Positions 1 through 12,662 of a stretch of 12,662 nucleotides of DNA are shown one piece after another. Positions within the stretch are counted from its first letter, which is position 1; every line of letters begins with the position of its first letter. Position numbers and translations under genes: made by a program. The stretch comes from a virus. The stretch is taken from UHGV virus genome UHGV-0336296, one strand, 5' to 3'. Under the pieces are notes generated by a model. That model searched no databases. It was not told the DNA's origin and saw only the letters and a program-made list of their open reading frames with translations.

Positions 1-692
1 TCGTTGAGCAGGTGCAGAAAATGTGGCGTACCGGGAAACGCCTTTATGGTAACGCCAGCGACCTGGTCACCATGATCAAAACGCTTTCCGGTGTCAGCCT
101 CGGCAGCGATCTGCAACCGCGCGGCGTCTGGAAAACGGACAGTAAAACCACCGCCACGGCGACGCATCAGCGTAACGAGGTTGCCAGTACCCTTCGTACG
201 ACCGCAATCAGCGAAGCGGCGTATGCCGTCACCCGATTGCCTGCGCCAACAACTTCCGCGGTGATGCAGAATGCCGCAGTGGGGCAGTCAACAACACCTG
301 CGCAGAGCACTGGCTGGCCTTCCGTCACGCATCCGGCACTGAACAATGCACCGGCGGTGAAAAACACGGTTGACCTGCCAACGTGGGAAGAACTGACTGA
401 CATTCGCGACACACTGAATACGGCAATTGATAAGGAGTTGTCCCGTACAACCAGTGATGCGCTGTTTCTGGCACTGCGCCGGGTGAAAGCAGATCTGAAT
501 GCGGATATCAACACGCGCCTTGAACAGTCTGCACGGATCATTCAGCGCACACCGGATGAGGTTTTACCCGCGCTGGTGCTGGCGGCGACCTGGTTTGATA
601 ACGCGGCGCGTGATGCGGACATTATCCGGCGTAATGCCATTACGCATCCCGGCTTTGTGCCGGTGATCCCTCTGAAGGTGCCAGTGCAATGA
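1..692 (+). CDS. Phage tail-associated protein, C-terminal part (Mu gpN / DNA circularization protein-like by position); 5' end lies outside the window
   Basis: Open frame runs in from the window edge with no upstream stop. Stop TGA at 690-692 overlaps the ATG of the next baseplate gene (ATGA). Assignment is by position upstream of the hub gene, not by recognised motifs. Confidence 0.4.
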   Translation, partial: VEQVQKMWRTGKRLYGNASDLVTMIKTLSGVSLGSDLQPRGVWKTDSKTTATATHQRNEVASTLRTTAISEAAYAVTRLPAPTTSAVMQNAAVGQSTTPAQSTGWPSVTHPALNNAPAVKNTVDLPTWEELTDIRDTLNTAIDKELSRTTSDALFLALRRVKADLNADINTRLEQSARIIQRTPDEVLPALVLAATWFDNAARDADIIRRNAITHPGFVPVIPLKVPVQ

Positions 693-1768
693 ACGACAAT
701 GTCACGCTACGGGTAAATGGCCGGGAGTGGAATGGCTGGACATCGGTGCGCATCGGTGCCGGTGTTGAACGACTGGCGCGGGATTTCAGTGTGGAGATCA
801 CCCGCCAGTGGCCGGGTGATGAGGGTATCACCACGCTTCAGCCGCGCATTAAAAACGGTTCAAAAGTGGAGGTGCTGATTGGTGATGAGCTGGTGATCAC
901 CGGCTGGGTGGAGGCGACGCCCGTTCGTTACGATGCCCGTTCGGTCAGCACCGGTATTGCCGGACGCAGTCTGACCGCTGACCTGATTGATTGTGCAGCT
1001 GAACCGACACAGTTTAACGGACGATCACTGGTACAGATTGCGCAGGCGCTTGCTGCGCCCTTCGGCATTGAGGTGGTGAACAGCGGTGCGCCGTCGGGTG
1101 TTATTCCTGATGTCCAGCCTGATCACGGTGAAACGGTGATCGAGGTGATTAACAAAATACTCGGTCAGCAGCAGGCGCTGGCTTATGACGACCCGCACGG
1201 CAGGCTGGTGATTGGCGGTATTGGCTCAACGCGGGCACATACCGCGCTGGTACTCGGGGAAAACATCCTTTCCTGCGATACGGAGAAGAGTATCCGGGAG
1301 CGGTTTTCTGTTTACCAGGTGGCGGGGCAGCGTGCCGGAAACGACGATGATTTCGGTGAGGCCACCACAACTGCGCTGCGGGCCCGCACAGAGGACGCAT
1401 TTATTGCCCGTTACCGTCCGATGTATATCAGGCAGACAGGGCAGGCTACGGGGGCAGGCTGTATTGCGCGTGCTGACTTTGAAGCCCGACAACGGGCGGC
1501 GCGGACGGATGAAACCACCTATGTGGTGCAGGGCTGGCGACAGGGTAACGGTACGCTGTGGCAGCCCAACCAGCGGGTGATTGTCTTCGATCCGGTCTGT
1601 GGTTTCGACAATACCGAACTGCTTGTCTCGGAAGTCACGTTTACTCAGGACCAGAATGGCACCCTGACGGAAATCCGTGTCGGCCCACCTGATGCTTATC
1701 TGCCTGAACCCGAAGCCCCCGGCGCGCGGAAAAAGAAAAAAGCCAGAGTACAGGAGGACCCGTTCTGA
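689..1768 (+). CDS. Baseplate hub protein, Mu gp44 (gene P)-like
   Basis: 359 aa ORF, first of a string of overlapping, translationally coupled genes. Size and order match the Mu/e14 baseplate module. High GC and codon-consistent. Confidence 0.5.
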   Translation: MNDNVTLRVNGREWNGWTSVRIGAGVERLARDFSVEITRQWPGDEGITTLQPRIKNGSKVEVLIGDELVITGWVEATPVRYDARSVSTGIAGRSLTADLIDCAAEPTQFNGRSLVQIAQALAAPFGIEVVNSGAPSGVIPDVQPDHGETVIEVINKILGQQQALAYDDPHGRLVIGGIGSTRAHTALVLGENILSCDTEKSIRERFSVYQVAGQRAGNDDDFGEATTTALRARTEDAFIARYRPMYIRQTGQATGAGCIARADFEARQRAARTDETTYVVQGWRQGNGTLWQPNQRVIVFDPVCGFDNTELLVSEVTFTQDQNGTLTEIRVGPPDAYLPEPEAPGARKKKKARVQEDPF

Positions 1769-2316
1769 TGAAGGCGATTGAAGCCATGCAGCGACAACTC
1801 CTCGGCCTGATTGGGCGGGCGGTGGTGAAAAGCATCAGTGCCGCCACGAAATGTCAGACCGTGGATGTGTCCCTGATTGCCGGTGAACCCAAAGCCGGGG
1901 TTGAACATCTTGAACCCTACGGTTTTACCGCAAGGGCAAACAGCGGTGCGGAAGCGGTGGTGTTGTTTCCGGATGGTGACCGTTCTCATGCGGTGGTTGT
2001 TACGGTGTCGGACCGGCGCTACCGCCTGAAAGGGCTGCAGACGGGTGAGGTGGCTGTCTATGACGATCAGGGGCAGTCCGTGACGCTGACCCGGGAGGGG
2101 ATCGTGGTGGACGGTGCAGGTAAAACGATCACGTTTCGCAATTCACCTAAAGCACGTTTTGAAATGGACCTGGAAGTGACAGGACAGGTGAAAGACCTGT
2201 GCGACTCCAGCGGCACCACCATGTCAGCGATGCGGCTTGCCTATAACGGGCATCGTCACAGAGAGAACGATCAGGGCAGTAACACCGACAAACCTGATAA
2301 AGCGATGGAGGCATGA
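1768..2316 (+). CDS. Baseplate central spike/assembly protein, Mu gp45-like (gpV family)
   Basis: 182 aa ORF. Start overlaps the previous stop (TGATG). Size and position match Mu gp45. Confidence 0.5.
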   Translation: MKAIEAMQRQLLGLIGRAVVKSISAATKCQTVDVSLIAGEPKAGVEHLEPYGFTARANSGAEAVVLFPDGDRSHAVVVTVSDRRYRLKGLQTGEVAVYDDQGQSVTLTREGIVVDGAGKTITFRNSPKARFEMDLEVTGQVKDLCDSSGTTMSAMRLAYNGHRHRENDQGSNTDKPDKAMEA

Positions 2317-2741
2317 TGGAACTGTGGCTGACGGTGAACGGTAAACGCACCTGCGCCAGCGCACCGCTGGATCCGCTGACCCGCGCCGTGGTGATTTCCC
2401 TGTTTACCTGGCGGCGGGCGGAGCCTGATGACAACGCCGACGTCCCGATGGGATGGTGGGGGGATACCTGGCCTGCGGTACAGAATGACCGTTACGGCTC
2501 CCGACTGTGGCTGCTTCAGCGCAGCAAACTGACCAATCAGCTGGTGCAGACGGTAAGGGGGTATATCCGCGAATGCCTGCAATGGATGATTGATGACGGC
2601 GTGGTGTCCCGTATTGATCTGGATATCCGCCGCACCGGGATTAATGAACTGGGTAACAGTATCACTCTCTGGCGTCGTGACGGACCGGTAATGATTTCTT
2701 TTGATGATCTGTGGAGTGCGATAACGCATGGCGGACAGTGA
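2313..2741 (+). CDS. Baseplate protein, Mu gp46-like
   Basis: 142 aa ORF with ATGA overlap to the previous gene. Mu gp46 is about 143 aa at the same position. Confidence 0.5.
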   Translation: MMELWLTVNGKRTCASAPLDPLTRAVVISLFTWRRAEPDDNADVPMGWWGDTWPAVQNDRYGSRLWLLQRSKLTNQLVQTVRGYIRECLQWMIDDGVVSRIDLDIRRTGINELGNSITLWRRDGPVMISFDDLWSAITHGGQ

Positions 2742-3786
2742 ATTTCAACGCCCGACGCTGGCAGAAAATATCAGTATGCTCCGTAACGATTTATTCGCCA
2801 GGCTGGACGTCAGCGACACGCTCCGGCGCATGGATGAAGACGTGCGGGCAAAGGTGTATGCGGCGGCGCTGCATACGGTTTACGGTTACATCGATTATCT
2901 GGCAATGAACATGCTGCCTGACCTGTGCGATGAGTCCTGGCTGGCGCGACATGCTGCGATGAAACGGTGTCCGCGCAAGGGGGCCACGGCTGCCAGCGGG
3001 TATATGCGCTGGGAAGGTGTCAGCGATGGCCTGAAGGTGACCGCCGGGAGTGTTATTCAGCGCGATGACCTGGTTCAGTACACGGCAACTGCCGATGCAA
3101 CCAGCTCCGGTGGTGTCCTGCGCGTGCCGATCGCCTGCTCAAGTGCAGGTGCGGTCGGTAACGCTGACGACGGTACGGCATTAATCCTGGTCACGCCGGT
3201 GAATGGTCTGCCGTCTTCCGGTGTGGCTGATACCCTTACAGGCGGATTTGATACTGAAGAGCTGGAAACGTGGCGCGCCCGCGTCATTGAGCGGTATTAC
3301 TGGACGCCGCAGGGCGGGGCTGACGGGGACTATGTCGTCTGGGCTAAAGAAGTGCCCGGCATTACCCGCGCATGGACATACCGTCACTGGATGGGAACGG
3401 GAACTGTCGGTGTGATGATTGCCAGCAGTGACCTGATTAATCCCATTCCGGAAGAATCAACGGAAACGGCGGCAAGACAACATATCGAGCCACTGGCCCC
3501 GGTGGCAGGCTCTGATTTGTATGTATTCAGGCCGGTGGCGCATACGGTGGATTTTCATATCCGCGTGATGCCGGACACACCGGAAATACGGGCTGCCATC
3601 ACCGCGGAGTTGCGTTCGTTTCTTCTGCGTGATGGTTATCCGCAGGGAGAACTGAAGGTATCGCGTATCAGTGAGGCGATTTCCGGTGCGAACGGGGAAT
3701 ATAGCCATCAGTTGCTTGCACCGGCAGACAATATCTCCATTGCGAAAAATGAACTGGCGGTTCTGGGGACGATTTCATGGACGTGA
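2728..3786 (+). CDS. Baseplate J-like protein, Mu gp47-like
   Basis: 352 aa ORF overlapping the previous gene by 14 nt. Size and position match baseplate J-family proteins of Mu-like and e14-like tails. Confidence 0.55.
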
Positions 3787-4361
3787 CAAACGATGATTAC
3801 ATCCGTCTGTTGTCGGCACTGTTGCCCCCCGGTCCGGCGTGGTCAGCCGGCGATCCGGCGATTGCCGGTGCGGCACCGTCATTAACCCGCGTTCATCAGC
3901 GTGCGGATGCCCTGATGCGGGAGCTGGATCCGCGCACAACCACCGAACTGATAAACCGCTGGGAGCGTCTGTGCGGCCTGCCGGATGAATGTATTCCGGC
4001 AGGGACGCAGACCCTTCGCCAGCGTCAGCAACGGCTGGATGCGAAGGTTAATCTGGCGGGCGGCATCAATGAGGATTTTTACCTTGCACAGCTTGCTGCC
4101 CTGGGCAGACCAGACGCCACCATCACGCGATACGACAAAAGCACGTTCACCTGCTCATCTGCCTGTACTGACGCGGTGAATGCGCCGGAATGGCGGTATT
4201 ACTGGCAGGTCAACATGCCAGCCGCCACCAACACCACCTGGATGACATGTGGCGATCCCTGTGATTCCGCACTGCGTATCTGGGGCGACACCGTAGTCGA
4301 GTGTGTGCTTAACAAACTCTGCCCGTCGCATACCTACGTAATTTTTAAATATCCGGAGTAA
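3777..4361 (+). CDS. Tail protein, Mu gp48 / YmfQ-like (DUF2313 family)
   Basis: 194 aa ORF overlapping the previous gene by 10 nt, directly upstream of the tail fibre gene as in e14 and Mu. Confidence 0.5.
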
Positions 4362-4364
4362 TCC

Positions 4365-5150
4365 ATGCATCGTATAGACACGAAAACCGCGCAGAAGGAT
4401 AAGTTCGGCGCGGGTAAGAACGGTTTTACCCGTGGTAACCCCCAGACCGGCACGCCTGCCACCGATCTGGATGATGACTACTTTGACATGTTGCAGGAGG
4501 AGCTTTGCAGCGTTGTGGAGGCATCCGGTGCCAGCCTGGAGAAGGGGCGGCATGACCAGCTGCTTACCGCGCTTCGTGCGCTGCTGTTAAGCCGCAAGAA
4601 TCCGTTTGGCGATATCAAATCGGATGGCACGGTGAAAACAGCTCTCGAAAACCTTGGTTTGGGAGAAGGTTCGGCATTACCCGTTGGCGTGCCTGTTCCG
4701 TGGCCTTCCGCCACTCCGCCAACAGGCTGGCTGAAATGCAACGGGGCGGCTTTTTCTGCTGAAGAATACCCGGAACTGGCAAAGGTTTACCCGACAAATA
4801 AATTGCCTGATTTACGCGGTGAGTTTATTCGTGGCTGGGATGATGGAAGAGGGATTGATACTAACCGTAGCTTGCTTTCGTCACAGGGAGATACCATTCG
4901 GAATATAACAGGATTTATAAATGAAGTTAAAGGCACCATTGATACAGCAACTTTCAGGTTACAGACTGGTACTGGTGCTTTTGCCTTAGCATCTCAAGCT
5001 ACGCGAAATATCTATAATAACCTAGGCACATATGAAACAAAAAATACCCCTTACACAGGATTCAGTTTTGATGCATCCAGGGTTGTACCAACAGCATCAG
5101 AGAATCGCCCTCGAAACATTGCATTTAACTATATCGTGAGAGCAGCATAA
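4365..5150 (+). CDS. Side tail fibre protein: constant N-terminal part (to about 4653) fused to an invertible C-terminal receptor-binding cassette
   Basis: 261 aa. GGAG RBS upstream. Contains a tail-collar-like motif ([21 protein letters not shown]). The left crossover site lies inside the coding sequence at 4642-4667. GC drops sharply after about 4860. Confidence 0.75.
4642..4667. repeat. Left invertase crossover site (hix/gix/pix-like, 26 bp)
   Basis: ctctcgaaaacc-tt-ggtttgggagaa: AAACC-NN-GGTTT core with dyad symmetry, as in Hin/Gin/Cin/Pin recombination sites. Confidence 0.7.
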
Positions 5151-5752
5151 TGGATAAAGCAATATTAAATAGTGAGCTTATTGCTACAAAGTCGGGGGAT
5201 ATTACCGTTTATAACTATGATAGTGAGACGCAGGAATATATTTCAGCATCAACTGAATATCTTGCCATTGGTGTCGGTATTCCTGCATATTCCTGTTTAG
5301 ATGCCCCTGGCACACATAAGGCGGGTTATGCTATCTGTCGTTCTGCAAATTTTAACTCATGGGAATATGTGCCAGACCATCGCGGTGAAATCGTCTATAG
5401 CACCAAAACGGGAGAGTCAAAAGAAATCACAGCTCCGGGTGATTACCCTGATAATACAACCACTATCGCCCCGTTAACGCCATACGATAAATGGGATGGT
5501 GAGAAATGGGTGACGGATACCGAAGCACAGCATAGCGCCGCAGTAGATGCAGCAGAAGCACAGCGCCAGTCACTGATTGATACTGCAATGGCTTCAATCA
5601 GTCTGATTCAGCTGAAATTGCAGGCCGGACGTAAACTGACGCAGGCAGAAACAACCAGCCTTAACGCTGTGCTGGATTACATTGACGCGGTGACGGCAAC
5701 TGATACCAGCACCGCGCCTGATGTCATCTGGCCTGAACTGCCGGAGGCGTAG
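5150..5752 (+). CDS. Tail fibre assembly protein (Tfa)
   Basis: 200 aa. Start overlaps the fibre stop (TAATG). C-terminus LDYIDAVTATDTSTAPDVIWPELP is the conserved Tfa C-terminal signature, shared with the opposite-strand copy. Confidence 0.75.
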   Translation: MDKAILNSELIATKSGDITVYNYDSETQEYISASTEYLAIGVGIPAYSCLDAPGTHKAGYAICRSANFNSWEYVPDHRGEIVYSTKTGESKEITAPGDYPDNTTTIAPLTPYDKWDGEKWVTDTEAQHSAAVDAAEAQRQSLIDTAMASISLIQLKLQAGRKLTQAETTSLNAVLDYIDAVTATDTSTAPDVIWPELPEA

Positions 5753-6167
5753 GCCATTCAATATCTGGCGCACCGGAAGTATCGACCAGCTCCAGTGCGT
5801 CCAGATAATCCAGCCATAAATTATATTGTTCCAGCTCGTCACCTTTCAGACGACCAATAGCAGCTTTGCCAGGCCACTGATGGGTATTGATGTAGGTATT
5901 GACTTCTGAAACCAAAGATATTTTTTTCATTTCAGCCGCCAGCACCTCATCCTCTTTTGAAGGCGGCGGGGAATTAATCCATATTGGCCGTCCTGAACTG
6001 TCAGCGCCAATTTCTTTCCCTTCTGGATGCAGCCCAAGAAATTGCTCATATGTTTCTCTGGTAATTTCAATAACATCATCAGGAAGCGTTCCCGCATCCT
6101 CATATTCTGGAAACAATTCTTGCAGATAAAAACTTTTACTTCCGGGTGAAAAGAATACTGAGTTCAT
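5724..6167 (-). CDS. Alternative tail fibre assembly protein (Tfa'), silent cassette in this orientation
   Basis: 147 aa on the - strand, converging on tfa and overlapping it by 29 bp. C-terminus WLDYLDALELVDTSGAPDIEWPTPP matches the Tfa signature. Confidence 0.7.
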   Translation of the reverse strand: MNSVFFSPGSKSFYLQELFPEYEDAGTLPDDVIEITRETYEQFLGLHPEGKEIGADSSGRPIWINSPPPSKEDEVLAAEMKKISLVSEVNTYINTHQWPGKAAIGRLKGDELEQYNLWLDYLDALELVDTSGAPDIEWPTPPAVQAR

Positions 6168-6169
6168 TC

Positions 6170-6624
6170 TTACCGTCCAATGATTAACGCTGAGACGCTG
6201 GTATCTGAAGGAAAGGCTGCATTCAGTGGTTTGTCGACTTTGAACACAATCGTATTATTCCCCCTGACAGCGGCAAAAGAACAAACCGCCGTCGCGTATG
6301 AACCTGTAATATTACTGGATACACCACCATAAGCTGTTGTTGATACCAGAGGGATAACGCCCAGCACCTTATTAGGAAATACAAAGGGCAATGTGGCTGT
6401 GGCAATATAAGACTTATTAGAACCTGTAATGGCATAAGCATTATCAGTCATTCCATTCATCGCCACTGGACCGCTTATACTTACAGTAACCATCTGAATG
6501 ATTAGCCCGTCAGGTTGACGAATCACAAAATTTCCATTGCCACCAGTAACCGTCCAGAAAGACATATCAGGGATTTGGTTTTCCCCGTTGCCCACATTCC
6601 GTTTTGCCGCTTCTCCCAAACCAA
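6170..6624 (-). CDS. Alternative tail fibre C-terminal cassette (Stf'), no start of its own; expressed only after inversion fuses it to the constant N-terminus
   Basis: - strand frame is open from the right crossover site to a stop at 6170-6172, 2 nt upstream of the tfa' start. The sequence at the crossover encodes GLGE in both the expressed and the silent cassette. Confidence 0.65.
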
Positions 6625-6636
6625 CGTTTATGAAAA
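6611..6636. repeat. Right invertase crossover site (26 bp), inverted relative to the left site
   Basis: ttctcccaaacc-aa-cgtttatgaaaa. The inner half is the exact reverse complement of the inner half of the left site. Central AA is complementary to the left site's TT. Lies about 55 bp upstream of the invertase start. Confidence 0.7.
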
Positions 6637-6690
6637 TACAGAAATAACGAGCAAATGGCATCATTCCTGCTTTTGTCAGGGAGATCTACC

Positions 6691-7242
6691 ATGCTTATTG
6701 GCTATGTACGTGTGTCAACAAATGACCAGAACACAGATCTACAACGTAATGCGCTGAACTGTGCAGGATGTGAGCTGATTTTTGAAGACAAGATAAGCGG
6801 TACAAAGTCCGACAGACCAGGACTGAAAAAGCTGCTCAGGACATTATCGGCAGGTGACACGCTGGTGGTCTGGAAACTGGATCGACTCGGTCGCAGCATG
6901 CGGCATCTTGTCGTTTTGGTGGAGGAGCTTCGGGAAAAGGGTATTAACTTTCGCAGCCTGACCGACAGCATAGATACGTCTTCACCAATGGGACGCTTTT
7001 TCTTCCATGTCATGGGCGCACTTGCCGAAATGGAAAGGGAGCTGATAGTCGAACGTACCAGGGCGGGATTGGCTGCGGCTCGTGAAGAAGGGCGAATAGG
7101 TGGGCGTCGATCAAAGCTAACTGATGAACAGTGGGCGCAGGCAGGAAGGTTGGTTGCAGCAGGTGAATCACGACAGCGTGTGGCATTAATTTACGATGTT
7201 GGGATATCGACGCTATATAAAAAATTTCCGGCAACCAGGTAA
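6691..7242 (+). CDS. pin: Site-specific DNA invertase, serine recombinase of the Pin/Hin/Gin/Cin family
   Basis: 184 aa from the ATG at 6691. N-terminus MLIGYVRVSTNDQ carries the catalytic serine motif. C-terminal helix-turn-helix (GISTLYKKF). Adjacent to the invertible fibre segment. Confidence 0.9.
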   Translation: MLIGYVRVSTNDQNTDLQRNALNCAGCELIFEDKISGTKSDRPGLKKLLRTLSAGDTLVVWKLDRLGRSMRHLVVLVEELREKGINFRSLTDSIDTSSPMGRFFFHVMGALAEMERELIVERTRAGLAAAREEGRIGGRRSKLTDEQWAQAGRLVAAGESRQRVALIYDVGISTLYKKFPATR

Positions 7243-7330: not shown

Positions 7331-7349
7331 TTAATTGACGGTGATTATG

Positions 7350-7769
7350 ATGCAGTTTTTCACTCCCTCCGGGTTGCGTGCAGTGCAGCCGCTTCCACTC
7401 TATGGCGATCTTGTACCCTGTGGTTTCCCAAGCCCTGCTCAGGACTACGTTGAACAGCGTATCGATCTTAACGAGCTACTGATACAACACCCCAGCGCCA
7501 CGTACTTCGTTAAGGCATCTGGTGACTCGATGATTGATGCCGGGATCGGCGAAGGCGATTTACTGGTAGTGGACAGTTCACGCAAGGCAGAGCACGGCGA
7601 TATCGTTATTGCTGCGGTGGACGGGGAATTTACCGTTAAGCGCCTACAGTTATGGCCAACTGTCCAGCTTAACCCTGAAAACCGCGCCTGGTCGCCTATC
7701 ATCATCGGGAGCGAAGAAACGCTCGATGTTTTTGGTGTGGTGACGTTCATCGTGAAATCGACGGGTTGA
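7350..7769 (+). CDS. umuD: Translesion DNA polymerase V accessory subunit UmuD (LexA-like self-cleaving S24 peptidase)
   Basis: 139 aa from the ATG at 7350. Cys-Gly cleavage site (LVPCGFPSP), Ser nucleophile motif (ASGDSMID), and Lys in FTVKRL. Sits directly behind the SOS box. Confidence 0.85.
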
Positions 7770-7771
7770 TC

Positions 7772-9040
7772 ATGTACGCGTTGTGTGATGTGAACTCGTT
7801 CTATGCCTCCTGTGAAACTGTATTTCGCCCGGATCTCAAAGGTAGGCCGGTTGTGGTGCTTTCCAACAATGACGGTTGTGTTATTGCCCGCAGCACAGAG
7901 GCAAAGAAACTGGGTATCAAAATGGGTGAGCCGTACTTCAGGCAGAAGGACTTTTTCCGGCGCCATGGGGTGGTGTGCTTCAGCAGCAACTATGAGCTGT
8001 ATGCGGATATGTCTAACCGGGTGATGACCACGCTGGAAGAAATGTCGCCGCGCTGTGAAATTTACTCGATAGACGAGGCATTTTGTGACCTCACTGGTGT
8101 ACGTAACTGTCGTGATCTGACTGATTTTGGCCGTGAAATCCGTGCTACTGTTCTGCAGCGAACGCATCTGACAGTGGGTGTTGGCATTGCCCAGACCAAG
8201 ACGCTGGCCAAGCTGGCCAACCACGCGGCCAAACAATGGCAGCGGCAGACGGGCGGGGTGGTAGACCTGTCCAGTGTCGATCGCCAGCGCAAACTGATGG
8301 CCGCGCTGCCGGTTGATGAAGTCAGGGGCATCGGTCGGCGTATTTCGAAAAAACTGGAGGCGATGGGGATCAAGACCGTACTGCAACTCGCTGATACGGA
8401 CATCCGTTTTATCCGTAAACATTTTAATGTCGTGCTGGAGCGAACGGTGCGTGAGTTACGCGGAGAACCCTGCCTGGCACTGGAAGAATTCGCGCCAGTG
8501 AAACAGGAAATTATCTGTTCCCGCTCTTTTAGCGGTCGTATCACGGAGTATGAAGAGATGCGCCAGGCGATCTGCAGCTATGCCTCGCGGGCGGCAGAGA
8601 AACTGCGTGGCGAGCACCAGTATTGCCGTTTTATCTCGGCGTTTGTGAAGACCAGCCCGTTCGCACTGAACGAGCCCTATTATGGCAATAATGCCTCCGT
8701 GAAGCTTCTGACGCCTACGCAGGACAGTCGGGATATCATCAGTGCAGCCATCCGCTGTCTGGACGCCATATGGCAAGACGGATATCGGTATCAGAAAGCC
8801 GGGGTGATGTTGGGTGATTTCTTCAGTCAGGGCGTGGCCCAGCTCAACTTGTTCGATGATAACGCGCCGCGCCCGGGCAGTGAGAAACTGATGGAAGTGC
8901 TGGATCACCTCAATGCCAAAGGCGGGAGGGGGACGCTGTATTTTGCAGGACAGGGTATCCAGCAGCAGTGGCAGATGAAACGGGAAATGCTTTCTCCACG
9001 TTACACCACCCGATTCTCTGATCTACCCGTTGTCAGGTGA
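7772..9040 (+). CDS. umuC: Translesion DNA polymerase V catalytic subunit UmuC (Y-family polymerase)
   Basis: 422 aa from the ATG at 7772. N-terminus [13 protein letters not shown] and [11 protein letters not shown] are Y-family catalytic motifs. Starts 2 nt after the umuD stop. Confidence 0.9.
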
Positions 9041-9163: not shown

Positions 9164-10912
9164 TTATAGGCAAGAAATTGCGTGTCTTACTGTATTGTTT
9201 AAATCATATATCGCGCCATATTTAAAACTTTCTTGCTTACCTATGAAATAAATGTCAAGTTTTTGATTGAGGTATATAAGGCGCTGCTTTTCATTTGTGG
9301 CAAACTGAGATATGTTACTAATTCTATAATTACTTCTTAAAAAAGCGTTGAATTGCTCTATATCTTTAATGCTCCATTCTTTTAAAATGCACTTGGTCAA
9401 AAATGGTGCGCCAAGTACTTCTAGCGTTTTATAGTTTCCCATGGGATCTAATTTGAGTAATAAGTTAACATCAAATAAAGCCCAACCATCAGTTTCAATA
9501 ATTTCCTTAATTGCCTTTAAGTTTTTTCTCTTTTCAATATTATTATGACGGCCTGATAATATTGAAAATATAAGTTTCCCATCATCAAAGCCACTAGTCC
9601 AACTACTGATTGGATTGTTGTTATGAAATTCAAAGTAAGTAATAATGTCCTCGTCACTAAATTCGAGTGATTTAGAACTCATGAACTGCAATGTTAGTAA
9701 TGATGATTTTGGAAGATATTTATGATAAGTCAAATATTCATAGTTCTGAACCGCCCTAAGCCATTGGTGCAAATCACATGGTATTGTTCTAGAAATTAAA
9801 CCAATAATCGTGGGGAAAAATTCTTTTTCATCTGTCTCCTGTAGTTCTGGTCGAGTTGAAACTGCAATATCAATTGTACTTAAAGGTGTTGGCACATAAA
9901 AAACATCGTCCAATATATCATAAAGAGAAACATGACCACTGTAGTAATTTTTAAGGTGAATATTAATTTTATAATTGTGTAATGTAGACAAAAGTCTCGG
10001 TTCATGTGGATTTTCATCGCTGCTGGAATTTTGGGGTGGGATATGCTGGATGCTGTCAATGATCAGTTCGTCCATGGATTTGTTATGGATAAATAACAAG
10101 ATAAAATATGACAAAATTGAGCTTAGTATGGTTTTAGAGGCGATTTTCCACTCTAGTTCAGGGTGGTTTTCTGCGTGTAAATATAATGGAAGTGCAGTAT
10201 TTAAACACCTCATTAAAATTCTTATGTTAACTATGTTATGGTATGATATTATTTCTTCGAAAATCATTTTGTCTTCAGTGGGGAAGTACTGTAGTTTTTC
10301 TTCAATTATTCTCATATCTAATATGTCGCGAGGGTTTGGGTTGTAATGAAGTGAATCAGAAATAATTTTTTCTTTATGTTCTAATGACAGGTGGGATTCG
10401 GCAGATGTATTAGATATAACAATAAAATCCAAACTAGAGATTTTTGAGGTTGAATATAACGAATGACAATAAGTTAGTATTTCATTGGCCAGTGAGGGAG
10501 TGCTTAATCGCTCAATGTCATCTAATATAAATATGCCACTGAGTTTGGAGAGTATGTTCTCTCTTACACTTGAACCAATGGAACTGAACACACCATTAAG
10601 CACATTGGCACTAGCGGGAGAACCACTGCTTACACTACCCAAACCAGAAATAGTATCTAACCCAGACTTAAGAGTGTCTATATCTTGAAGATAGTAGCAG
10701 TCAATAATCTTTGCTTTGAAATCTGCAAGAGACTTAACGCCTAGTAATGAAATATAATAAAACACATTAAGATCATAAAAACGAGGAAATACATTTTTAA
10801 TAAAAAAAGTTTTACCTGTTCCCCATTTTCCATCAATAAAAATAAGTCCATCTCTTTCGGATTGTAGAAGATGAACTATTTTTACAATCAAATTGCTATT
10901 AGAGTTTTCCAT
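9164..10912 (-). CDS. KAP-family P-loop NTPase (PifA-like); candidate abortive infection / anti-phage protein
   Basis: 582 aa. Walker A GKWGTGKT (the GxWGxGK[ST] form typical of KAP NTPases) near the N-terminus. Walker B-like IFILDDIERL (hhhhDD-DR). Very AT-rich single-gene insert between GC-rich neighbours. Confidence 0.7.
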   Translation of the reverse strand: MENSNSNLIVKIVHLLQSERDGLIFIDGKWGTGKTFFIKNVFPRFYDLNVFYYISLLGVKSLADFKAKIIDCYYLQDIDTLKSGLDTISGLGSVSSGSPASANVLNGVFSSIGSSVRENILSKLSGIFILDDIERLSTPSLANEILTYCHSLYSTSKISSLDFIVISNTSAESHLSLEHKEKIISDSLHYNPNPRDILDMRIIEEKLQYFPTEDKMIFEEIISYHNIVNIRILMRCLNTALPLYLHAENHPELEWKIASKTILSSILSYFILLFIHNKSMDELIIDSIQHIPPQNSSSDENPHEPRLLSTLHNYKINIHLKNYYSGHVSLYDILDDVFYVPTPLSTIDIAVSTRPELQETDEKEFFPTIIGLISRTIPCDLHQWLRAVQNYEYLTYHKYLPKSSLLTLQFMSSKSLEFSDEDIITYFEFHNNNPISSWTSGFDDGKLIFSILSGRHNNIEKRKNLKAIKEIIETDGWALFDVNLLLKLDPMGNYKTLEVLGAPFLTKCILKEWSIKDIEQFNAFLRSNYRISNISQFATNEKQRLIYLNQKLDIYFIGKQESFKYGAIYDLNNTVRHAISCL

Positions 10913-10989
10913 TATAATTGTTATCCTAATTTAAAGAGGTGTAAATAAAGCATGAAATAGTATAATGCTAATTTGAGGTAAAAACATTA

Positions 10990-11580
10990 TTATTCAATTG
11001 AAACAATAAGATATTCACCTTGATTTTTCGCATTACCCATCGCTCGCGTAACTGCATGCCAGATAAACTTGTCAGCTTGCACGGCACCGTAGTCGGTAAT
11101 CGCTTCTGCTTCCTTGCCTCGGCGTCTTGGCGCATCCCATTCCCGGGCTGCCTCCGGTGACAATACAAGTGGCTGTCGGTCGTGTATATCAACCAAGCCT
11201 TCATCGGCCGCAGACGTCACTATTAAAAAACCTTCGGCCTCGTCACTACGTTCGAAGGGGCGCTGCCGATTGCCGCCATGAATATTGGCTACCCATCAGT
11301 TCGGTGAATGAAGTAGGGTTGTTTTTTTGCTATCTTCGGTCTTGTCGAGTAGGGCACCGAAGTTACCTTCAACGCCCCCTCTAAGAACCGTGCGTGAGAG
11401 TTTCCAGCTCACACGGCTCAAGCCTTATCAAACACCACTGTGAAATGATGCGGCAGGTGCAGTCAGACGCGTGGTTCGGGATCGGATATAATCTGTCCAA
11501 TCCGTGTCATATGGATTAAGTGCAGATGCGACGAGTCTGTGACGGACAATTTTGACGCTCTGAGCGTGAACCAGCCTCAG
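10990..11580 (-). pseudogene. Decayed yedK-like SRAP (SOS response-associated peptidase, DUF159) gene
   Basis: C-terminal frame reads LVDIHDRQPLVLSPEAAREW...NAKNQGE, matching the SRAP C-terminal region. Upstream sequence continues the match (PIFMAAIGS, PFERSDEAEGFLIV) only across a 1-nt frameshift and an in-frame TAG. No intact ORF longer than 78 aa. N-terminal boundary is uncertain. Confidence 0.55.
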
Positions 11581-11631
11581 TATTGTAACTTTCCCCGTAT
11601 CAGTGTCCCGATAAAGACCTGACACCCCATT

Positions 11632-12465
11632 TTACTGCTGCCACCAAGCATATAGATCTAGACCTTTGGTAATTACACCTAAGAAAATCCCTAAAACTAT
11701 TAATCCAGTCACTAATGGGTGTTCTTTGAGCCTCATCGTTAACCAATATGGATGCCAGCTTCTTGGCCAAAACCATTTATTGTTAGTTTTGAGAGTACGA
11801 TCATGAATCCGCTCAGCAATATTACAGAGTATGTCGACCTTTCGTAATGTAGACATTTCTAGCTCTCTATACTTACCTTTGACATATGCCTCGGCTTCCT
11901 CAGCGCCGGCTAAGACATCTTTATCAGCGATACCATTTTTTTCAACAAGAGCTAACATTCTACCTGCACGGCCACTTTTGGCGGTATGCCCAATATAGCT
12001 TCGTCCATATATAGAAACGGCAGCTCTCGCTAAATCGAGTTTTCTGTCATCAGTAAGTATAAAGGGCTCGCCACCTAGGACTGAAAATCTATGCTGTAAG
12101 GCCTGAAATCCGTAATTGTTATCTCGCATGTTCCAATGCAGAAATGTGCATTGTGCGTATCTTTTCAGGAATGTAAAGTAGTTATCTAATAGATGATGCT
12201 CAAGGATATCGAGATTTTTTTCATCTGAAACATCAAGACCTAATAATTCTGCGGATCTATTAAGAGCCCAATGATCTGTTTGCCCACTGCCTAAATTTCT
12301 GACAGCAATAGAGGTGATCCTTGTGGATTTACCGCCCACAGCATCATAAAAAGATTCACATGAATAATGGACAACGTAGCATTGATGCGCATTTGCAAAA
12401 CATTTTTCGATAAAACCAATGTACTCGCTGCGATCTCTAATCTGTTGTTTGATGGAAGATGACAT
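11632..12465 (-). CDS. Hypothetical protein with a C-terminal transmembrane anchor; function unknown
   Basis: 277 aa. ATG at 12465 preceded by a GAGGT RBS. C-terminal hydrophobic helix LVTGLIVLGIFLGVITKGL. AT-rich compared with the phage and umuDC parts. No family recognised. Confidence 0.6.
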   Translation of the reverse strand: MSSSIKQQIRDRSEYIGFIEKCFANAHQCYVVHYSCESFYDAVGGKSTRITSIAVRNLGSGQTDHWALNRSAELLGLDVSDEKNLDILEHHLLDNYFTFLKRYAQCTFLHWNMRDNNYGFQALQHRFSVLGGEPFILTDDRKLDLARAAVSIYGRSYIGHTAKSGRAGRMLALVEKNGIADKDVLAGAEEAEAYVKGKYRELEMSTLRKVDILCNIAERIHDRTLKTNNKWFWPRSWHPYWLTMRLKEHPLVTGLIVLGIFLGVITKGLDLYAWWQQ

Positions 12466-12480
12466 CAGTGAACCTCATGC

Positions 12481-12510
12481 AAAAAAAAACCCGCAAAGTG
12501 CGGGCTTTTT
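12481..12510 (-). terminator. Rho-independent terminator (bidirectional hairpin, stronger on the - strand)
   Basis: 6 bp GC-rich stem cccgca/tgcggg with a 3 nt loop at 12490-12504. Followed by T9 on the - strand (12481-12489) and T5 on the + strand (12506-12510). Confidence 0.65.
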
Positions 12511-12637
12511 AAATCACTCAGGAGCCGCGGCTCCTTTGCGTATCCTTTTTTGTCTCCTCACCGTCTGGTCGGTGTCCTGCTGAGACTGCTAACTTCCTGT
12601 TTTTGTTGGTGTTGTCCTTACACCGTCCAATCATGAT

Positions 12638-12662
12638 TGGTGGAGCTGGCGGGAGTTGAACC
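12638..12662 (-). ncRNA. ssrA: 3' terminal fragment of tmRNA (ssrA) tRNA-like domain, or a duplicated att copy of it; gene body would lie beyond the window end
   Basis: - strand reads GGTTCAACTCCCGCC-AGCTCC-A-CCA: T-loop TTCAACT, T-stem CCCGC, acceptor 3' strand CAGCTCC, discriminator A, CCA. This matches the tmRNA 3' end as recalled. Only 25 nt are visible. Confidence 0.55.

Follow-up and report, generated by a model that had tools for sequence, protein, structure and literature searches.

At the end of a 12,662-nucleotide stretch of the virus genome UHGV-0336296, referred to here as the window, a gene for a protein of 277 residues lies between the 3' end of ssrA, the tmRNA gene, and a yedK pseudogene, on the same strand as a KAP-type P-loop NTPase gene. 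A reading made from the sequence alone had placed it there, and the coordinates agree; it had recognised no family and had suggested either an independent defence or toxin gene or a partner of the NTPase. The question raised by this locus is what such a protein, here termed ORF277, does, and whether it needs its neighbours to do so.

The gene and its place at the ssrA end

ORF277 is encoded on the minus strand at positions 11632–12465, from an ATG start to a TAA stop codon included in these coordinates. The gene is AT-rich and has a good ribosome-binding site, as had been noticed before: its GC content is 40.0%, against 58% for the phage tail genes and 33% for the KAP NTPase gene, and a GAGG motif read from the sequence (12473–12476, minus strand), 7 nt before the ATG, is kept in the Klebsiella and Raoultella loci. 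The protein corresponds to WP_021574711 of Escherichia coli SZQ1, annotated as hypothetical and found with 100% identity in three E. coli genomes. That this is a real gene follows from homologues with matches down to E=1e-143 (2,609 clusters in the homology search), from a dN/dS of 0.16 between the Klebsiella and Raoultella alleles and from a pN of 0.17 against a pS of 0.85 between the E. coli and Klebsiella alleles, a comparison that shows purifying selection.

The island in the window forms the cargo-bearing end of an SfV-like prophage integrated at ssrA, with ORF277 as its last cargo gene. This prophage context had escaped the sequence-only reading. The integration site consists here of the last 25 nt of ssrA (12638–12662, minus strand), where a match to Rfam RF00023 (model positions 350–374, E=2.4e-10) is cut by the window end; ARAGORN calls no tmRNA in the window because only this stub lies inside it, and ssrA is annotated in E. 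coli SZQ1. Adjoining the site, a non-coding spacer of 132 nt (12506–12637, minus strand) leads from the ssrA 3' end to an intrinsic-terminator-like element (12481–12505, minus strand), which is composed of a GC-rich hairpin (12505–12490) and a run of nine T residues (12489–12481), reads on both strands and ends 16 nt before the start codon. Klebsiella, Raoultella and E. coli A22 share this conserved element. When aligned, the spacer is more than 90% identical among E. coli, Klebsiella and Raoultella, in contrast with the saturated synonymous sites of the adjacent ORF277. The stretch from ssrA to the ORF277 ATG revealed no sigma-70-like promoter, and expression in the lysogen would probably depend on read-through of the ssrA terminator or on an unrecognised promoter. 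The weak hit of the Rfam Leu_leader model at 12481–12536 (24 bits, the gathering score being 50) is a chance match on the terminator hairpin.

A link of ORF277 to tmRNA processing, which its position next to ssrA and the presence of the RNase T fold among its structural matches had prompted, was rejected. The adjacency reflects integration at ssrA, since plasmids and Streptococcus phages carry family members as well, others adjoin tRNA genes, and ORF277 is confined to 3 of the 5,426 complete genomes of E. coli.

Neighbouring genes and possible partners

The stop codon of ORF277 is directly followed by the 3' remnant of a group II intron (11344–11625; Rfam RF00029, scoring 53.6 bits at 11344–11421), then by the yedK (SRAP) pseudogene (10990–11220) and the KAP-type NTPase gene (9164–10912, minus strand); umuDC is also present in the window. 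Related loci are arranged differently: where the closest allele is found, in Klebsiella, a BLUF-EAL gene occupies the place of the NTPase and umuDC lies nearby, in Serratia the order ORF277-SRAP-umuCD is intact, and in E. coli A22 other defence-like cargo fills the slot of ORF277.

That ORF277 and the NTPase are functional partners is suggested by their common strand, by a distance of about 720 nt and by the match of the NTPase to the PADLOC candidate system PDC-S49 (7.8e-14). Such a partnership is nevertheless scarcely credible, because ORF277 has no conserved neighbour: across 97 loci with a homologue, neighbour families (proteins of at least 70 aa) recur in 6 loci at most and KAP NTPases do not recur at all, which largely refutes this part of the earlier proposal. 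Moreover, the intron remnant and the pseudogene separate the two genes, the NTPase has its own promoter-like site (10945–10917), its place is taken by BLUF-EAL at the Klebsiella allele, and the GC contents of the two genes differ.

The same loci bear on a role within a DNA-damage tolerance cassette together with SRAP (YedK) and UmuDC, for instance as an exonuclease-like helper of translesion synthesis. The intact order in Serratia, the pseudogene and umuDC of the window, umuDC near the Klebsiella allele, a YolD-like gene in the vicinity of the pAW63 homologue, and RecX and LigD close to a homologue on a Legionella plasmid all point in this direction. However, of the 97 loci only 6, all of them enterobacterial prophage ends, contain umuC and umuD, which thus reflect lineage synteny; SRAP is not a recurrent neighbour, and its gene is a pseudogene in the very window where ORF277 is intact. 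As a membrane anchor and fusions to TIR and AriA modules (see below) would also be ill-suited to a repair factor, this role is very improbable.

In a set of 80 non-redundant loci, whose immediate neighbours number 141, each Pfam family is represented at most three times among these neighbours, and no conserved ORF of 25–90 aa was found within 450 nt on either side of the homologues. The clusters that came up as a small antitoxin-like partner were translations of the tmRNA gene, and no toxin-antitoxin arrangement was found. ORF277 has no obligatory partner gene, nor is it co-conserved with core neighbours.

Distribution of the family

At 50% identity the family falls into about 1,150 clusters, and 497 of 185,579 species genomes contain a relative. 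Its occurrence, though patchy, extends across many phyla, in prophages, plasmids and defence islands alike; members come from Streptococcus prophages as well as from Pseudomonas, cyanobacteria and E. coli. It is covered by no model of Pfam, NCBIfam or PADLOC, and the literature, searched by accession, by PHROG number and for membrane-anchored defence proteins with an exonuclease-like domain, yielded no description of it. Homologues often adjoin integration sites and recombinases. For instance, in 17 Streptococcus prophages the gene belongs to the lysogeny module and is co-oriented with the integrase and cI genes, and in SfV-like and lambda-like prophages of E. coli, Klebsiella, Raoultella and Serratia it occupies a slot adjoining the integration site. 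Six of 13 plasmid carriers were typed as conjugative. An Alteromonas homologue is located between a type I restriction-modification system and other defence-like genes, and the examined flanks of homologues in chromosomal defence islands are free of phage and plasmid genes. AbiJ, Stk2, CapP, RmrA, pAgo, ThsA and a type I restriction enzyme, as well as PDC-S19, mad6 and PD-T4-6, are among the immediate neighbours; at least 12 of the 141 match PADLOC models, a raw count without a matched control, and most are not defence genes.

Carriage by mobile elements and defence islands, patchy distribution and fusion to defence domains thus combine into a guilt-by-association case for defence, and judged by these genomic patterns the family is probably anti-phage. 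The defence or toxin role proposed earlier is still the most likely kind of function, and the view of an independent accessory gene in an island at ssrA holds, given its rarity in E. coli and its patchy occurrence.

The mobile elements themselves could also be the beneficiaries in a way unrelated to defence, with ORF277 acting in prophage or plasmid maintenance, in the control of induction, in entry exclusion directed only at related elements, in anti-defence or in DNA processing at the membrane. Its carriage by prophages and partly conjugative plasmids, its frequent position beside integration sites and recombinases and the mostly non-defence character of its immediate neighbours would fit, as would the fact that no family of PADLOC-DB v2.0.0 matches ORF277 at E≤1. 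Yet the gene sits in variable cargo slots and not in conserved replication, transfer or regulatory modules, its domain is fused to TIR and AriA/AriB-type defence modules, and the chromosomal defence islands place it away from phage and plasmid genes. A non-defence function is therefore distinctly unlikely.

An exonuclease-like fold with a degenerate site

At the level of sequence databases the impression that ORF277 belongs to no family was correct. It gives no match in Pfam (at E≤1, PF03104 included), NCBIfam, PADLOC or the PDB, the latter searched with the single sequence and with a profile, and its sole sequence-level family match is PHROG 8766, of unknown function; a housekeeping family is thus not among its relatives. 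An NCBIfam nucleoside kinase match (E=0.084) and the PDB matches to ACE and thioredoxin reductase (E>0.4) are noise. At the level of fold, in contrast, the impression does not hold. In the AF2 model (pLDDT 88, pTM 0.80), residues 1–229 (11779–12465, minus strand) are predicted to form an RNase H-like core of the order b1-b2-b3-aA-b4-aB-b5 with structural similarity to known members of the DEDD superfamily, among the matches being the inactive DEDD-fold proteins Maelstrom, Exuperantia, Egalitarian and Pol alpha. Matches in BFVD are annotated as YprB-like or as exonucleases. The PF03104 cut-off of 23 bits is passed by two members of the family, in each case over a match that spans Exo I to Exo II: P0377 (40% identity to ORF277) scores 29.8 bits and P0384 (43%) 27.6 bits. 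The domain of about 230 residues is accordingly modelled as a 3'-5' exonuclease fold of the DEDD type found in family B polymerases.

The canonical two-metal site of this fold, nevertheless, appears degenerate. The domain carries the motifs HYSCESFY (33–40), HWNMRD (110–115), GAEEA (187–191) and STLRK (205–209), which were assigned to Exo I–III from motif shape and predicted secondary structure. With this assignment, the D-x-E of Exo I is replaced by S35-C36-E37 at the end of strand b1: in an alignment of 255 sequences, position 35 is Ser in 218, Ala in 28 and Asp in none. The first Asp of Exo I is essential in characterised DEDD enzymes. E37 is replaced by Gln in 22 of the 255 sequences, and D115, the last residue of HWNMRD, is kept in 213, the remainder having Asn, Ser or Gly (Asn or Ser in 36); the substitutions at positions 35, 37 and 115 are scattered over lineages. 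E190, which would fit the x-A-x-x-D-A shape within G-A-E-E-A, is 100% conserved, and motif alignment places neither His nor Tyr at the general-base position of Exo III. Instead, H33, Y34, E89, H110, R126, N177, E190, S205 and K209 are 98–100% invariant. Since 84–87% of the members, ORF277 included, keep E37, D115 and D144, there is room for a non-canonical catalytic activity.

A C-terminal tail anchor

The single C-terminal transmembrane helix noticed in the sequence-only reading is borne out by the hydropathy of ORF277 and 43 homologues. Residues 251–266 (11668–11715, minus strand) form the sole strongly hydrophobic stretch of the protein (best 19-mer Kyte-Doolittle score 2.16). Each of the 43 aligned homologues has a hydrophobic stretch at the same place, and so does the alignment of 255 sequences, in which hydrophobic residues make up 73% of column 253, 76% of column 263 and at least 83% of each of the other 14 columns. 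K267 and a tail of 10 residues (11635–11667, minus strand) bring the number of residues after the helix to 11, within a range of 0–17 among ORF277 and the 43 homologues. The AF2 model has a helix at 250–276. No other transmembrane helix and no signal peptide was found, so that hydropathy and the modelled helix predict a tail-anchored inner-membrane protein, whose soluble domain would face the cytoplasm according to tail-anchor topology. This soluble part is basic (family median pI 8.6).

Between the domain and the anchor, residues 230–250 (11716–11778, minus strand) form a Trp-rich linker with a short juxtamembrane helix predicted at 239–248, delimited by a drop in pLDDT to 62–73 and by column conservation; E244, K247, H249 and P/W250 are conserved in the family. 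Within the anchor, a small-xxx-small motif at G259/G263 (Gly, Ala or Ser in 85% of the 255 sequences at 259 and in 61% at 263) is apparently conserved, although aligning hydrophobic segments may exaggerate such a pattern.

Domain fusions and a proposed role in immunity

Two relatives diverge from ORF277 at about residue 229 and have no transmembrane helix. In P0162 the ORF277-type domain is joined to a TIR domain of the CAP12/Pycsar type (PF10137, 9e-20; PADLOC PDC-S35, 3e-20; PycTIR, 4e-7), and in P0271 (38% identity, E=2e-51) to a PtuA/AriA-like ATPase (2e-22 / 5e-17), followed by an AriB-like gene (6e-8) whose start codon overlaps the P0271 stop codon. The best 120 matches to the N-terminal domain of P0271 are all canonical proteins of about 270 aa, and such fusions are hence rare. 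Each of the two represents one cluster among more than 1,000, and the argument for modularity thus rests on rare cases. In the AriA fusion, moreover, the domain could equally be an extra nuclease in an ATPase-nuclease system.

This brings in the direct alternative that ORF277 is an active membrane-tethered 3'-5' exonuclease, providing immunity or superinfection exclusion by degrading the free 3' end of incoming phage or plasmid DNA, while the helix merely localises the enzyme to the inner membrane and away from the chromosome. The logic would be that of SNIPE with a different nuclease fold; with SNIPE, keeping a nuclease at the membrane has been shown to work as a means of telling self from non-self (PMC13190303). 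The DEDD fold, the basic soluble part, the predicted cytoplasmic orientation, the retention of E37, D115, D144 and E190 and a reading of the AriA fusion as ATPase plus nuclease are in keeping with this, and H33, putatively on the same face of strand b1, might replace the lost Asp. Against it, the first Exo I Asp is never present, the Exo III position would have no general base, and the replacement of E37 by Gln and of D115 by Asn or Ser in scattered, otherwise intact-looking lineages would be surprising if these residues were metal ligands needed for an essential activity; the TIR fusion, too, suits a sensor better. An active exonuclease is consequently unlikely.

The explanation tentatively preferred here is that mobile elements carry ORF277 as an accessory protein that works on its own and protects the lysogen against other phages. 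Its helix would serve either to kill or to localise, and its exonuclease-like domain would act as a sensor that binds a nucleic-acid 3' end derived from the phage, a nucleotide or a phage protein, and need not cleave what it binds. Binding would lead to oligomerisation of ORF277, the C-terminal helices would assemble through the small-xxx-small motif, and the resulting membrane depolarisation would abort the infection; in the TIR and AriA fusions the same sensor would drive a different effector. A single transmembrane helix of 16 residues is a minimal effector, which counts against this explanation, as do the negative searches of PADLOC, of the literature and for an upstream promoter, the rarity of the fusions and the acidic residues retained in most members. 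A bolder version, possible but doubtful, is that a domain derived from a PolB exonuclease has become an unrecognised immunity sensor, a pseudo-nuclease perceiving a generic sign of infection at the inner membrane (free 3' DNA ends or a nucleotide, for example), wired to a pore-forming or depolarising tail anchor in more than 1,000 lineages and re-plugged into TIR or PARIS effectors in rare ones.

If true, these proteins of about 270 aa would constitute a compact single-gene immune family, with a sensor interchangeable between transmembrane, TIR and PARIS outputs and a sensing domain recycled from polymerase proofreading, an origin not found described for any defence sensor in PADLOC v2 and the literature searched. 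In the window, the end of the SfV-like prophage next to ssrA would then be a cargo slot in which two or more defence candidates, among them ORF277 and the KAP/PDC-S49 NTPase, reside independently of each other. About 2,600 clusters of "hypothetical" proteins could be relabelled as "tail-anchored DEDD-fold (PolB-exo-like) protein".

Comparison with known systems

The closest resemblance in fold is to the PolB exonuclease (PF03104, DEDDy), through the two family members above its gathering score, and to stand-alone PolB-like or YprB-like RNase H-fold exonucleases (PF10108, PF13482), through the BFVD matches so annotated. ORF277 differs from both in having neither a polymerase domain nor a Y-x3-D motif, in the change of the Exo I Asp to Ser or Ala, in an E37 and a D115 that are not invariant, and in its other set of invariant residues and its C-terminal transmembrane helix. 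The loss of canonical DEDD residues within this fold is shared with the Maelstrom MAEL domain, Exuperantia, Egalitarian and the exonuclease-like domain of Pol alpha; these inactive proteins are, however, eukaryotic RNA-binding or piRNA factors without a membrane anchor and with no detectable sequence similarity to ORF277.

Pycsar (PycTM/PycTIR) and Cap12-type CBASS systems exchange transmembrane and TIR effectors. Their effectors combine an N-terminal ligand-binding domain with transmembrane helices or a PF10137 TIR domain, and the relatives of ORF277 swap likewise, but ORF277 has no cyclase or other signal-producing partner gene, its putative sensor is not a cNMP-binding, SAVED or STING domain, and it possesses only one transmembrane helix. 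PARIS, which pairs the ABC ATPase AriA with the TOPRIM nuclease AriB, is approached by P0271, with an ORF277-type domain at its N-terminus and an AriB-like gene next to it; canonical AriA lacks this domain, whereas ORF277 lacks both an ATPase and an AriB partner.

Among the superinfection-exclusion and Abi proteins that prophages encode in their lysogeny modules, Sie2009, Ltp, SieA of P22 and AbiP/PdpSau resemble ORF277 as membrane-associated single proteins in a similar temperate-phage position. SieA and Ltp confer superinfection exclusion (PMC10883804, PMC11514479), and PdpSau and AbiP join a transmembrane helix to a nucleic-acid-binding fold (PMC10127798). In contrast to ORF277, these proteins have an OB fold or are lipoproteins, with N-terminal transmembrane helices, and none shows a sequence or PADLOC match to it; HepS, PdpSau/AbiP and SNIPE, considered as relatives, are not homologous.

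SNIPE (PD-lambda-1), a GIY-YIG nuclease bound to the membrane, cuts phage DNA while it is being injected (PMC13190303). Like ORF277, it is a single protein of mobile or defence loci with one transmembrane helix and a nuclease-fold domain predicted to be cytoplasmic, but it is built from an N-terminal transmembrane helix, DUF4041 and GIY-YIG, whereas ORF277 has a DEDD fold with a degenerate site and a C-terminal tail anchor. If the proposed role is true, ORF277 would be the second independent case, after SNIPE, of a membrane-anchored nuclease-fold domain, and would bear on how incoming DNA is discriminated from the cell's own.

Gene Layout and the Cargo Slot of an SfV-like Prophage

ORF277 is a candidate defence protein that would act from a single gene, and its architecture has not been described previously. 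Its gene, an ATG-initiated frame of 277 codons at 11632-12465 on the minus strand, lies downstream of the tmRNA gene, of which only the last 25 nt (12662-12638, minus strand; Rfam RF00023, model positions 350-374) fall inside the window before its edge, which is why ARAGORN reports no tmRNA there. On the same strand, a 132-nt spacer leads from the tmRNA end to a GC-rich hairpin (12505-12490) followed by nine T (12489-12481), and GAGG at 12476-12473 precedes the ATG, seven bases further on. ORF277 has a GC content of 40%, lower than that of the phage tail genes (58%) and higher than that of the neighbouring KAP NTPase gene (33%). According to hydropathy, residues 251-266 form the sole strongly hydrophobic stretch, after which 11 residues remain, Lys first. 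The description given by the sequence-only reading (position, ribosome-binding site and C-terminal transmembrane helix) is therefore correct, once the strand is specified as minus. A group II intron has left a 3' remnant directly past the stop codon (11344-11625, minus strand), and Rfam RF00029, a model of 77 positions, matches it with 53.6 bits at 11344-11421; just upstream of this match, the frame 11428-11625 may be the C-terminal end of an intron-encoded protein. The remnant parts ORF277 from a yedK/SRAP pseudogene (10990-11220) that has lost its N-terminus, possibly through insertion of the intron.

Window positions 10900-12662 are 100% identical to the chromosome of E. coli SZQ1, where the order is smpB, ssrA, ORF277 (WP_021574711, annotated as ‘hypothetical protein’), SRAP pseudogene, P-loop NTPase, umuDC on the opposite strand, invertase and tail-fibre genes, with the integrase lying farther along, beyond the latter. 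Positions 1-4668 match baseplate and tail genes of the phages SfV, SfII, SfI and SfIV with 97.5-98% identity. ORF277 thus closes an SfV-like prophage as its last gene; the variable region that holds it, from the tail fibres to the attachment site, is where Shigella phages place their serotype-conversion genes. Within the same prophage, window 5150-7242 resembles an invertible tail-fibre segment, with convergent tail-fibre/assembly gene pairs (5150-5752, plus strand; 5724-6167 and 6170-6664, minus strand) adjoining a Hin/Gin/Pin-type recombinase gene (6655-7242), after which comes a prophage-borne umuDC operon (7335-9040). ORF277 is carried by three of 5,426 complete E. coli genomes, with all three copies identical. 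The prophage in SZQ1 (L001 8598-13612) is far more degraded than that of the window, its tail genes being truncated beside a yfdR fragment, with an IS3 element present and the integrase about 9 kb from ORF277; the gene itself is intact in all three carriers despite this decay.

The content of the slot varies between hosts. Klebsiella and Raoultella have a 77%-identical allele at this position after ssrA, with genes for BLUF-EAL, a hypothetical protein, UmuDC and NUDIX behind it. E. coli A22 has the same attachment-site-proximal sequence and hairpin, and then BRO-N in converging orientation, an ImmA/IrrE-HTH pair and a GIY-YIG protein. The 170-nt non-coding stretch from the ssrA 3' end to the ORF277 start (window 12481-12637; L006 9833-10000; L021 5833-6000; L101 about 6000-6212) is more than 90% identical across E. 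coli, Klebsiella and Raoultella, whereas the E. coli and Klebsiella alleles of the gene next to it differ to saturation at synonymous sites (pS 0.85, pN 0.17). A mosaic junction is thus located at, or just inside, the gene start, the first ~20 coding bases still being near-identical. In A22, this stretch precedes other cargo (BRO-N). Integrase arm sites, or an RNA, may be contained in it. With a dN/dS of 0.16 between the Klebsiella and Raoultella alleles, ORF277 is a real gene under purifying selection.

In seven of 60 loci scanned, no other gene lies between tmRNA and the family gene, which is downstream of it on the same strand; three of these are enterobacterial (L006, L021, L022) and four from Pseudomonas (L015, L027, L029, L035), the latter with only 45-50% identity to ORF277; the window makes an eighth case. 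In two further loci, it comes directly after tRNA-Leu (L028) or tRNA-Arg (L096), again on the same strand. This position marks the family gene as end cargo of elements integrating into the 3' ends of tmRNA and tRNA genes. A hairpin terminator separates the RNA gene from the family gene in the tmRNA and tRNA-Leu cases, but the tRNA-Arg locus shows no evident one. Where enterobacterial loci have the close (77%) allele, the T-run and the ATG are just 16 nt apart and no σ70-like site was found upstream; transcription of the gene would therefore have to cross the hairpin. Hypothetically, expression would depend on integration if it came by read-through from the strong promoter of ssrA.

Family Spread and an Exonuclease-like Fold

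A word-indexed search retrieved 2,609 family clusters at 90% identity, and a full HMMER scan of 1.84 billion representatives gave 1,147 clusters at 50% identity with E<=1e-3 (354 at E<=1e-30), with a length of 255-280 aa in nearly all of the best 150 of the 1,147. In a pattern scan with one genome per species, relatives were present in 497 of 185,579 species, distributed over Proteobacteria, Cyanobacteria, Bacteroidota, Acidobacteriota, Chloroflexota, Planctomycetota and Firmicutes. At the sequence level, the earlier statement that no family could be recognised holds: Pfam, NCBIfam and PADLOC have no model for these proteins, which mostly appear as ‘hypothetical’ without an informative name, and only PHROG 8766, of unknown function, covers them. 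No description of the family was found in the published literature.

AlphaFold2, run with a 43-sequence alignment, yielded a model (pLDDT 88, pTM 0.80) with an N-terminal helix (residues 4-24), strands 29-36, 50-57 and 63-67, helices 68-75 and 82-102, strand 107-110, helix 120-129, strand 142-144, helix 145-153 and more helices as far as residue 221, followed by a poorly predicted linker, a juxtamembrane helix (239-248) and a terminal helix (250-276). Foldseek searches against the PDB and against viral models agree on the fold, with weaker scores, and two ordinary family members, P0377 and P0384, score 29.8 and 27.6 bits, respectively, against DNA_pol_B_exo1 over the Exo I to Exo II region (Pfam gathering cut-off 23). 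Based on the structure searches and these scores, the ORF277 domain has a DEDD-superfamily fold nearest to PolB exonuclease domains, namely that of the PolB-type proofreading domain, from which it probably derives.

The Exo motifs were placed by motif shape and predicted secondary structure rather than by coordinate superposition. With this inferred placement, S35-C36-E37 takes the place of Exo I (D-x-E, where b1 ends), H110-W-N-M-R-D115 that of Exo II (H-N-x-x-F-D, following b4) and L185-A-G187-A-E-E190-A191 that of Exo III (H-x-A-x-x-D-A). Characterised DEDD enzymes cannot do without their four acidic residues, which bind the metals. Across a 255-member alignment, however, position 35 as placed is Ser in 218, Ala in 28 and never the Asp of an active Exo I, and E37 is replaced by Gln in 22 members, D115 by Asn, Ser or Gly in 40 and D144 by Asn in 25, these substitutions being scattered across lineages that are intact elsewhere. 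Such relaxed conservation argues against canonical two-metal hydrolysis as the selected function. Meanwhile, H33, Y34, E89, H110, W111, M113, G119, F120, R126, N177, G187, E190, S205 and K209 are 98-100% conserved, and are kept even in Streptococcus-phage and Bacillus-plasmid members only 33-41% identical to ORF277. From the strictly kept His/His/Glu/Lys set, a pocket in this same place would seem to bind a ligand or to catalyse in a non-canonical way. The structural matches include DEDD-fold proteins that are inactive (Maelstrom, Exuperantia, Egalitarian and Pol alpha), and the soluble part is basic, with a median pI of 8.6 in the family and values above 7 in 89% of members. The main rival explanation, a membrane-sequestered active exonuclease attacking entering DNA, draws on the retention of E37, D115, D144 and E190 in ORF277 itself and on the parallel of SNIPE, which acts in the same way with a GIY-YIG domain (PMC13190303), but the loosely conserved metal ligands and the absence of Asp at the inferred position 35 make it unlikely.

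Membrane Segment and Domain Swaps

The single C-terminal transmembrane helix claimed from the sequence is present, by hydropathy, not only in ORF277: every member examined has one hydrophobic helix at its extreme C-terminus, with 0-17 residues beyond. Of the 16 columns spanning 251-266 in the alignment of 255 sequences, 14 are hydrophobic to 83% or more (the exceptions being 253 with 73% and 263 with 76%), and G, A or S occupy position 259 in 85% and position 263 in 61% of sequences, forming a small-xxx-small motif. Position 267 is K, R or N, and E244, K247, H249 and P/W250 are conserved next to the membrane. A bare anchor needs less constraint than this, though aligning hydrophobic segments can make conservation look higher than it is. 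The tail-anchor arrangement and flanking charges predict a cytoplasmic N-terminal domain. The family protein is hence tail-anchored, with a DEDD/PolB-exonuclease fold in the model, a degenerate metal site and a different invariant pocket.

Two relatives lack the transmembrane segment. P0162 (815 aa; metagenome contig L102 1867-4314) carries the ORF277-type domain at 31-250, a linking region of roughly 380 residues without any family match and a C-terminal CAP12/Pycsar-type TIR domain (PF10137 9e-20, PADLOC PDC-S35 3e-20, PycTIR 4e-7). In P0271 (587 aa), the domain at 4-221 (38% identical to ORF277, E=2e-51) is fused to an AAA_15/AAA_21 ATPase matching Septu PtuA (2e-22) and PARIS AriA (5e-17), and the next gene, which overlaps its stop codon, matches AriB (6e-8); metagenome contig L103 8001-10654 thus has a PARIS-like two-gene operon with overlapping stop and start codons. 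No description of such an AriA variant was found. Both fusions part from ORF277 at about residue 229, which defines a domain boundary there. Fusions are rare, with one among the best 150 of the 1,147 representatives and none among the best 120 matches of the P0271 domain. Even so, they link the ORF277-type domain to two hallmark immune modules. In each of them, a different part (TIR, or AriB) provides the effector, which leaves sensing as the simplest role for the shared domain; by the usual effector-swap logic, the transmembrane helix of the common family form would be its effector.

Neighbours and Genomic Contexts

The sequence-only reading had proposed the KAP NTPase as a possible partner of ORF277. 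When ORFs were called in 97 homologous loci and all neighbours clustered, no neighbour family occurred in more than six and no KAP NTPase recurred; the recurring ones were resolvase-type recombinases, umuC, umuD and type I R-M subunits. Likewise, among 141 immediate neighbours from 80 non-redundant loci, no Pfam family appeared more than three times, SmpB being the commonest, and no conserved ORF of 25-90 aa was found within 450 nt on either side of the family gene. Therefore, the KAP NTPase is not a partner of ORF277, and a partnership retains an almost negligible probability, also given the NTPase's own promoter-like site at 10945-10917. This KAP-like P-loop NTPase (582 aa; 9164-10912, minus strand) matches PDC-S49, a PADLOC candidate single-gene system (E=7.8e-14), and is a second, independent candidate defence gene in the same cargo slot. 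In Serratia, a lambda-like prophage has the homologue at its end, followed by an intact SRAP gene and umuCD; a DNA-damage cassette with SRAP and UmuDC, which such orders could bring to mind, has less support than the main readings and is very improbable.

Seventeen Streptococcus prophages carry the homologue at a distance of 2.8-3.9 kb from their integrase end. In Javan528, it sits between a cI-type repressor and the excisionase and early genes, co-directional with integrase and repressor, a lysogeny-module spot that is the classical place of prophage-expressed exclusion genes. Thirteen plasmids (of Bacillus, Legionella, Calothrix, Agrobacterium, Robbsia and others) carry it in accessory regions, near HEPN, Doc-type toxin-antitoxin and DUF2971 genes. 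In Pseudomonas, a Zeta-toxin-domain gene follows, and in Alteromonas the homologue begins 44 nt past hsdR of a BrxR-associated type I R-M system, with PDDEXK and metallophosphatase genes within 3 kb downstream. A 410-aa protein of this Alteromonas island (L019/L020 8808-10040) starts at the base directly after the homologue's coding region (8807/8808); it has no Pfam match, was not seen in the other loci and may be a lineage-specific partner. PADLOC-matching immediate neighbours include AbiJ, Stk2, CapP and RmrA (two each), together with pAgo, ThsA, a type I restriction enzyme, PDC-S19, mad6 and PD-T4-6, and number at least 12 of 141, counting the 25 most frequent families listed; predicted defence genes make up ~1.5% of bacterial genes according to a review (PMC13434031), a general figure that is not matched to ORF277 loci. 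Altogether, the contexts point to mobile elements and defence: this is a solitary gene, carried on mobile elements and in defence islands, with swaps between TM, TIR and AriA modules. A non-defence role for the carrier element, with which carriage on prophages and plasmids would also agree, has less support than the main readings and seems quite unlikely.

Proposed Mechanism and Comparison with Known Systems

As a whole, the reading of ORF277 as an abortive-infection protein, combining a sensor domain with a membrane-compromising C-terminal helix, is plausible but tentative. The predicted cytoplasmic domain would bind an infection cue, hydrolysis not being needed; the fold makes a free 3' end of a nucleic acid, or a nucleotide, the most plausible cue. 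Its binding would promote self-association of the protein, upon which the C-terminal helices could pack via their small-xxx-small face and compromise the membrane, thus aborting the infection. Uncharacterised defence candidates are common; this family is large and clean, and gives testable predictions.

PADLOC v2 places the family in no modelled defence family, and its resemblances to known systems are functional, not homologous. SNIPE likewise has a nuclease fold that is kept at the membrane, effectors of the Pycsar and CBASS systems join a sensor to a TM or TIR effector, and prophage Sie/Abi proteins, such as AbiP/PdpSau (PMC10127798), offer a further functional parallel.
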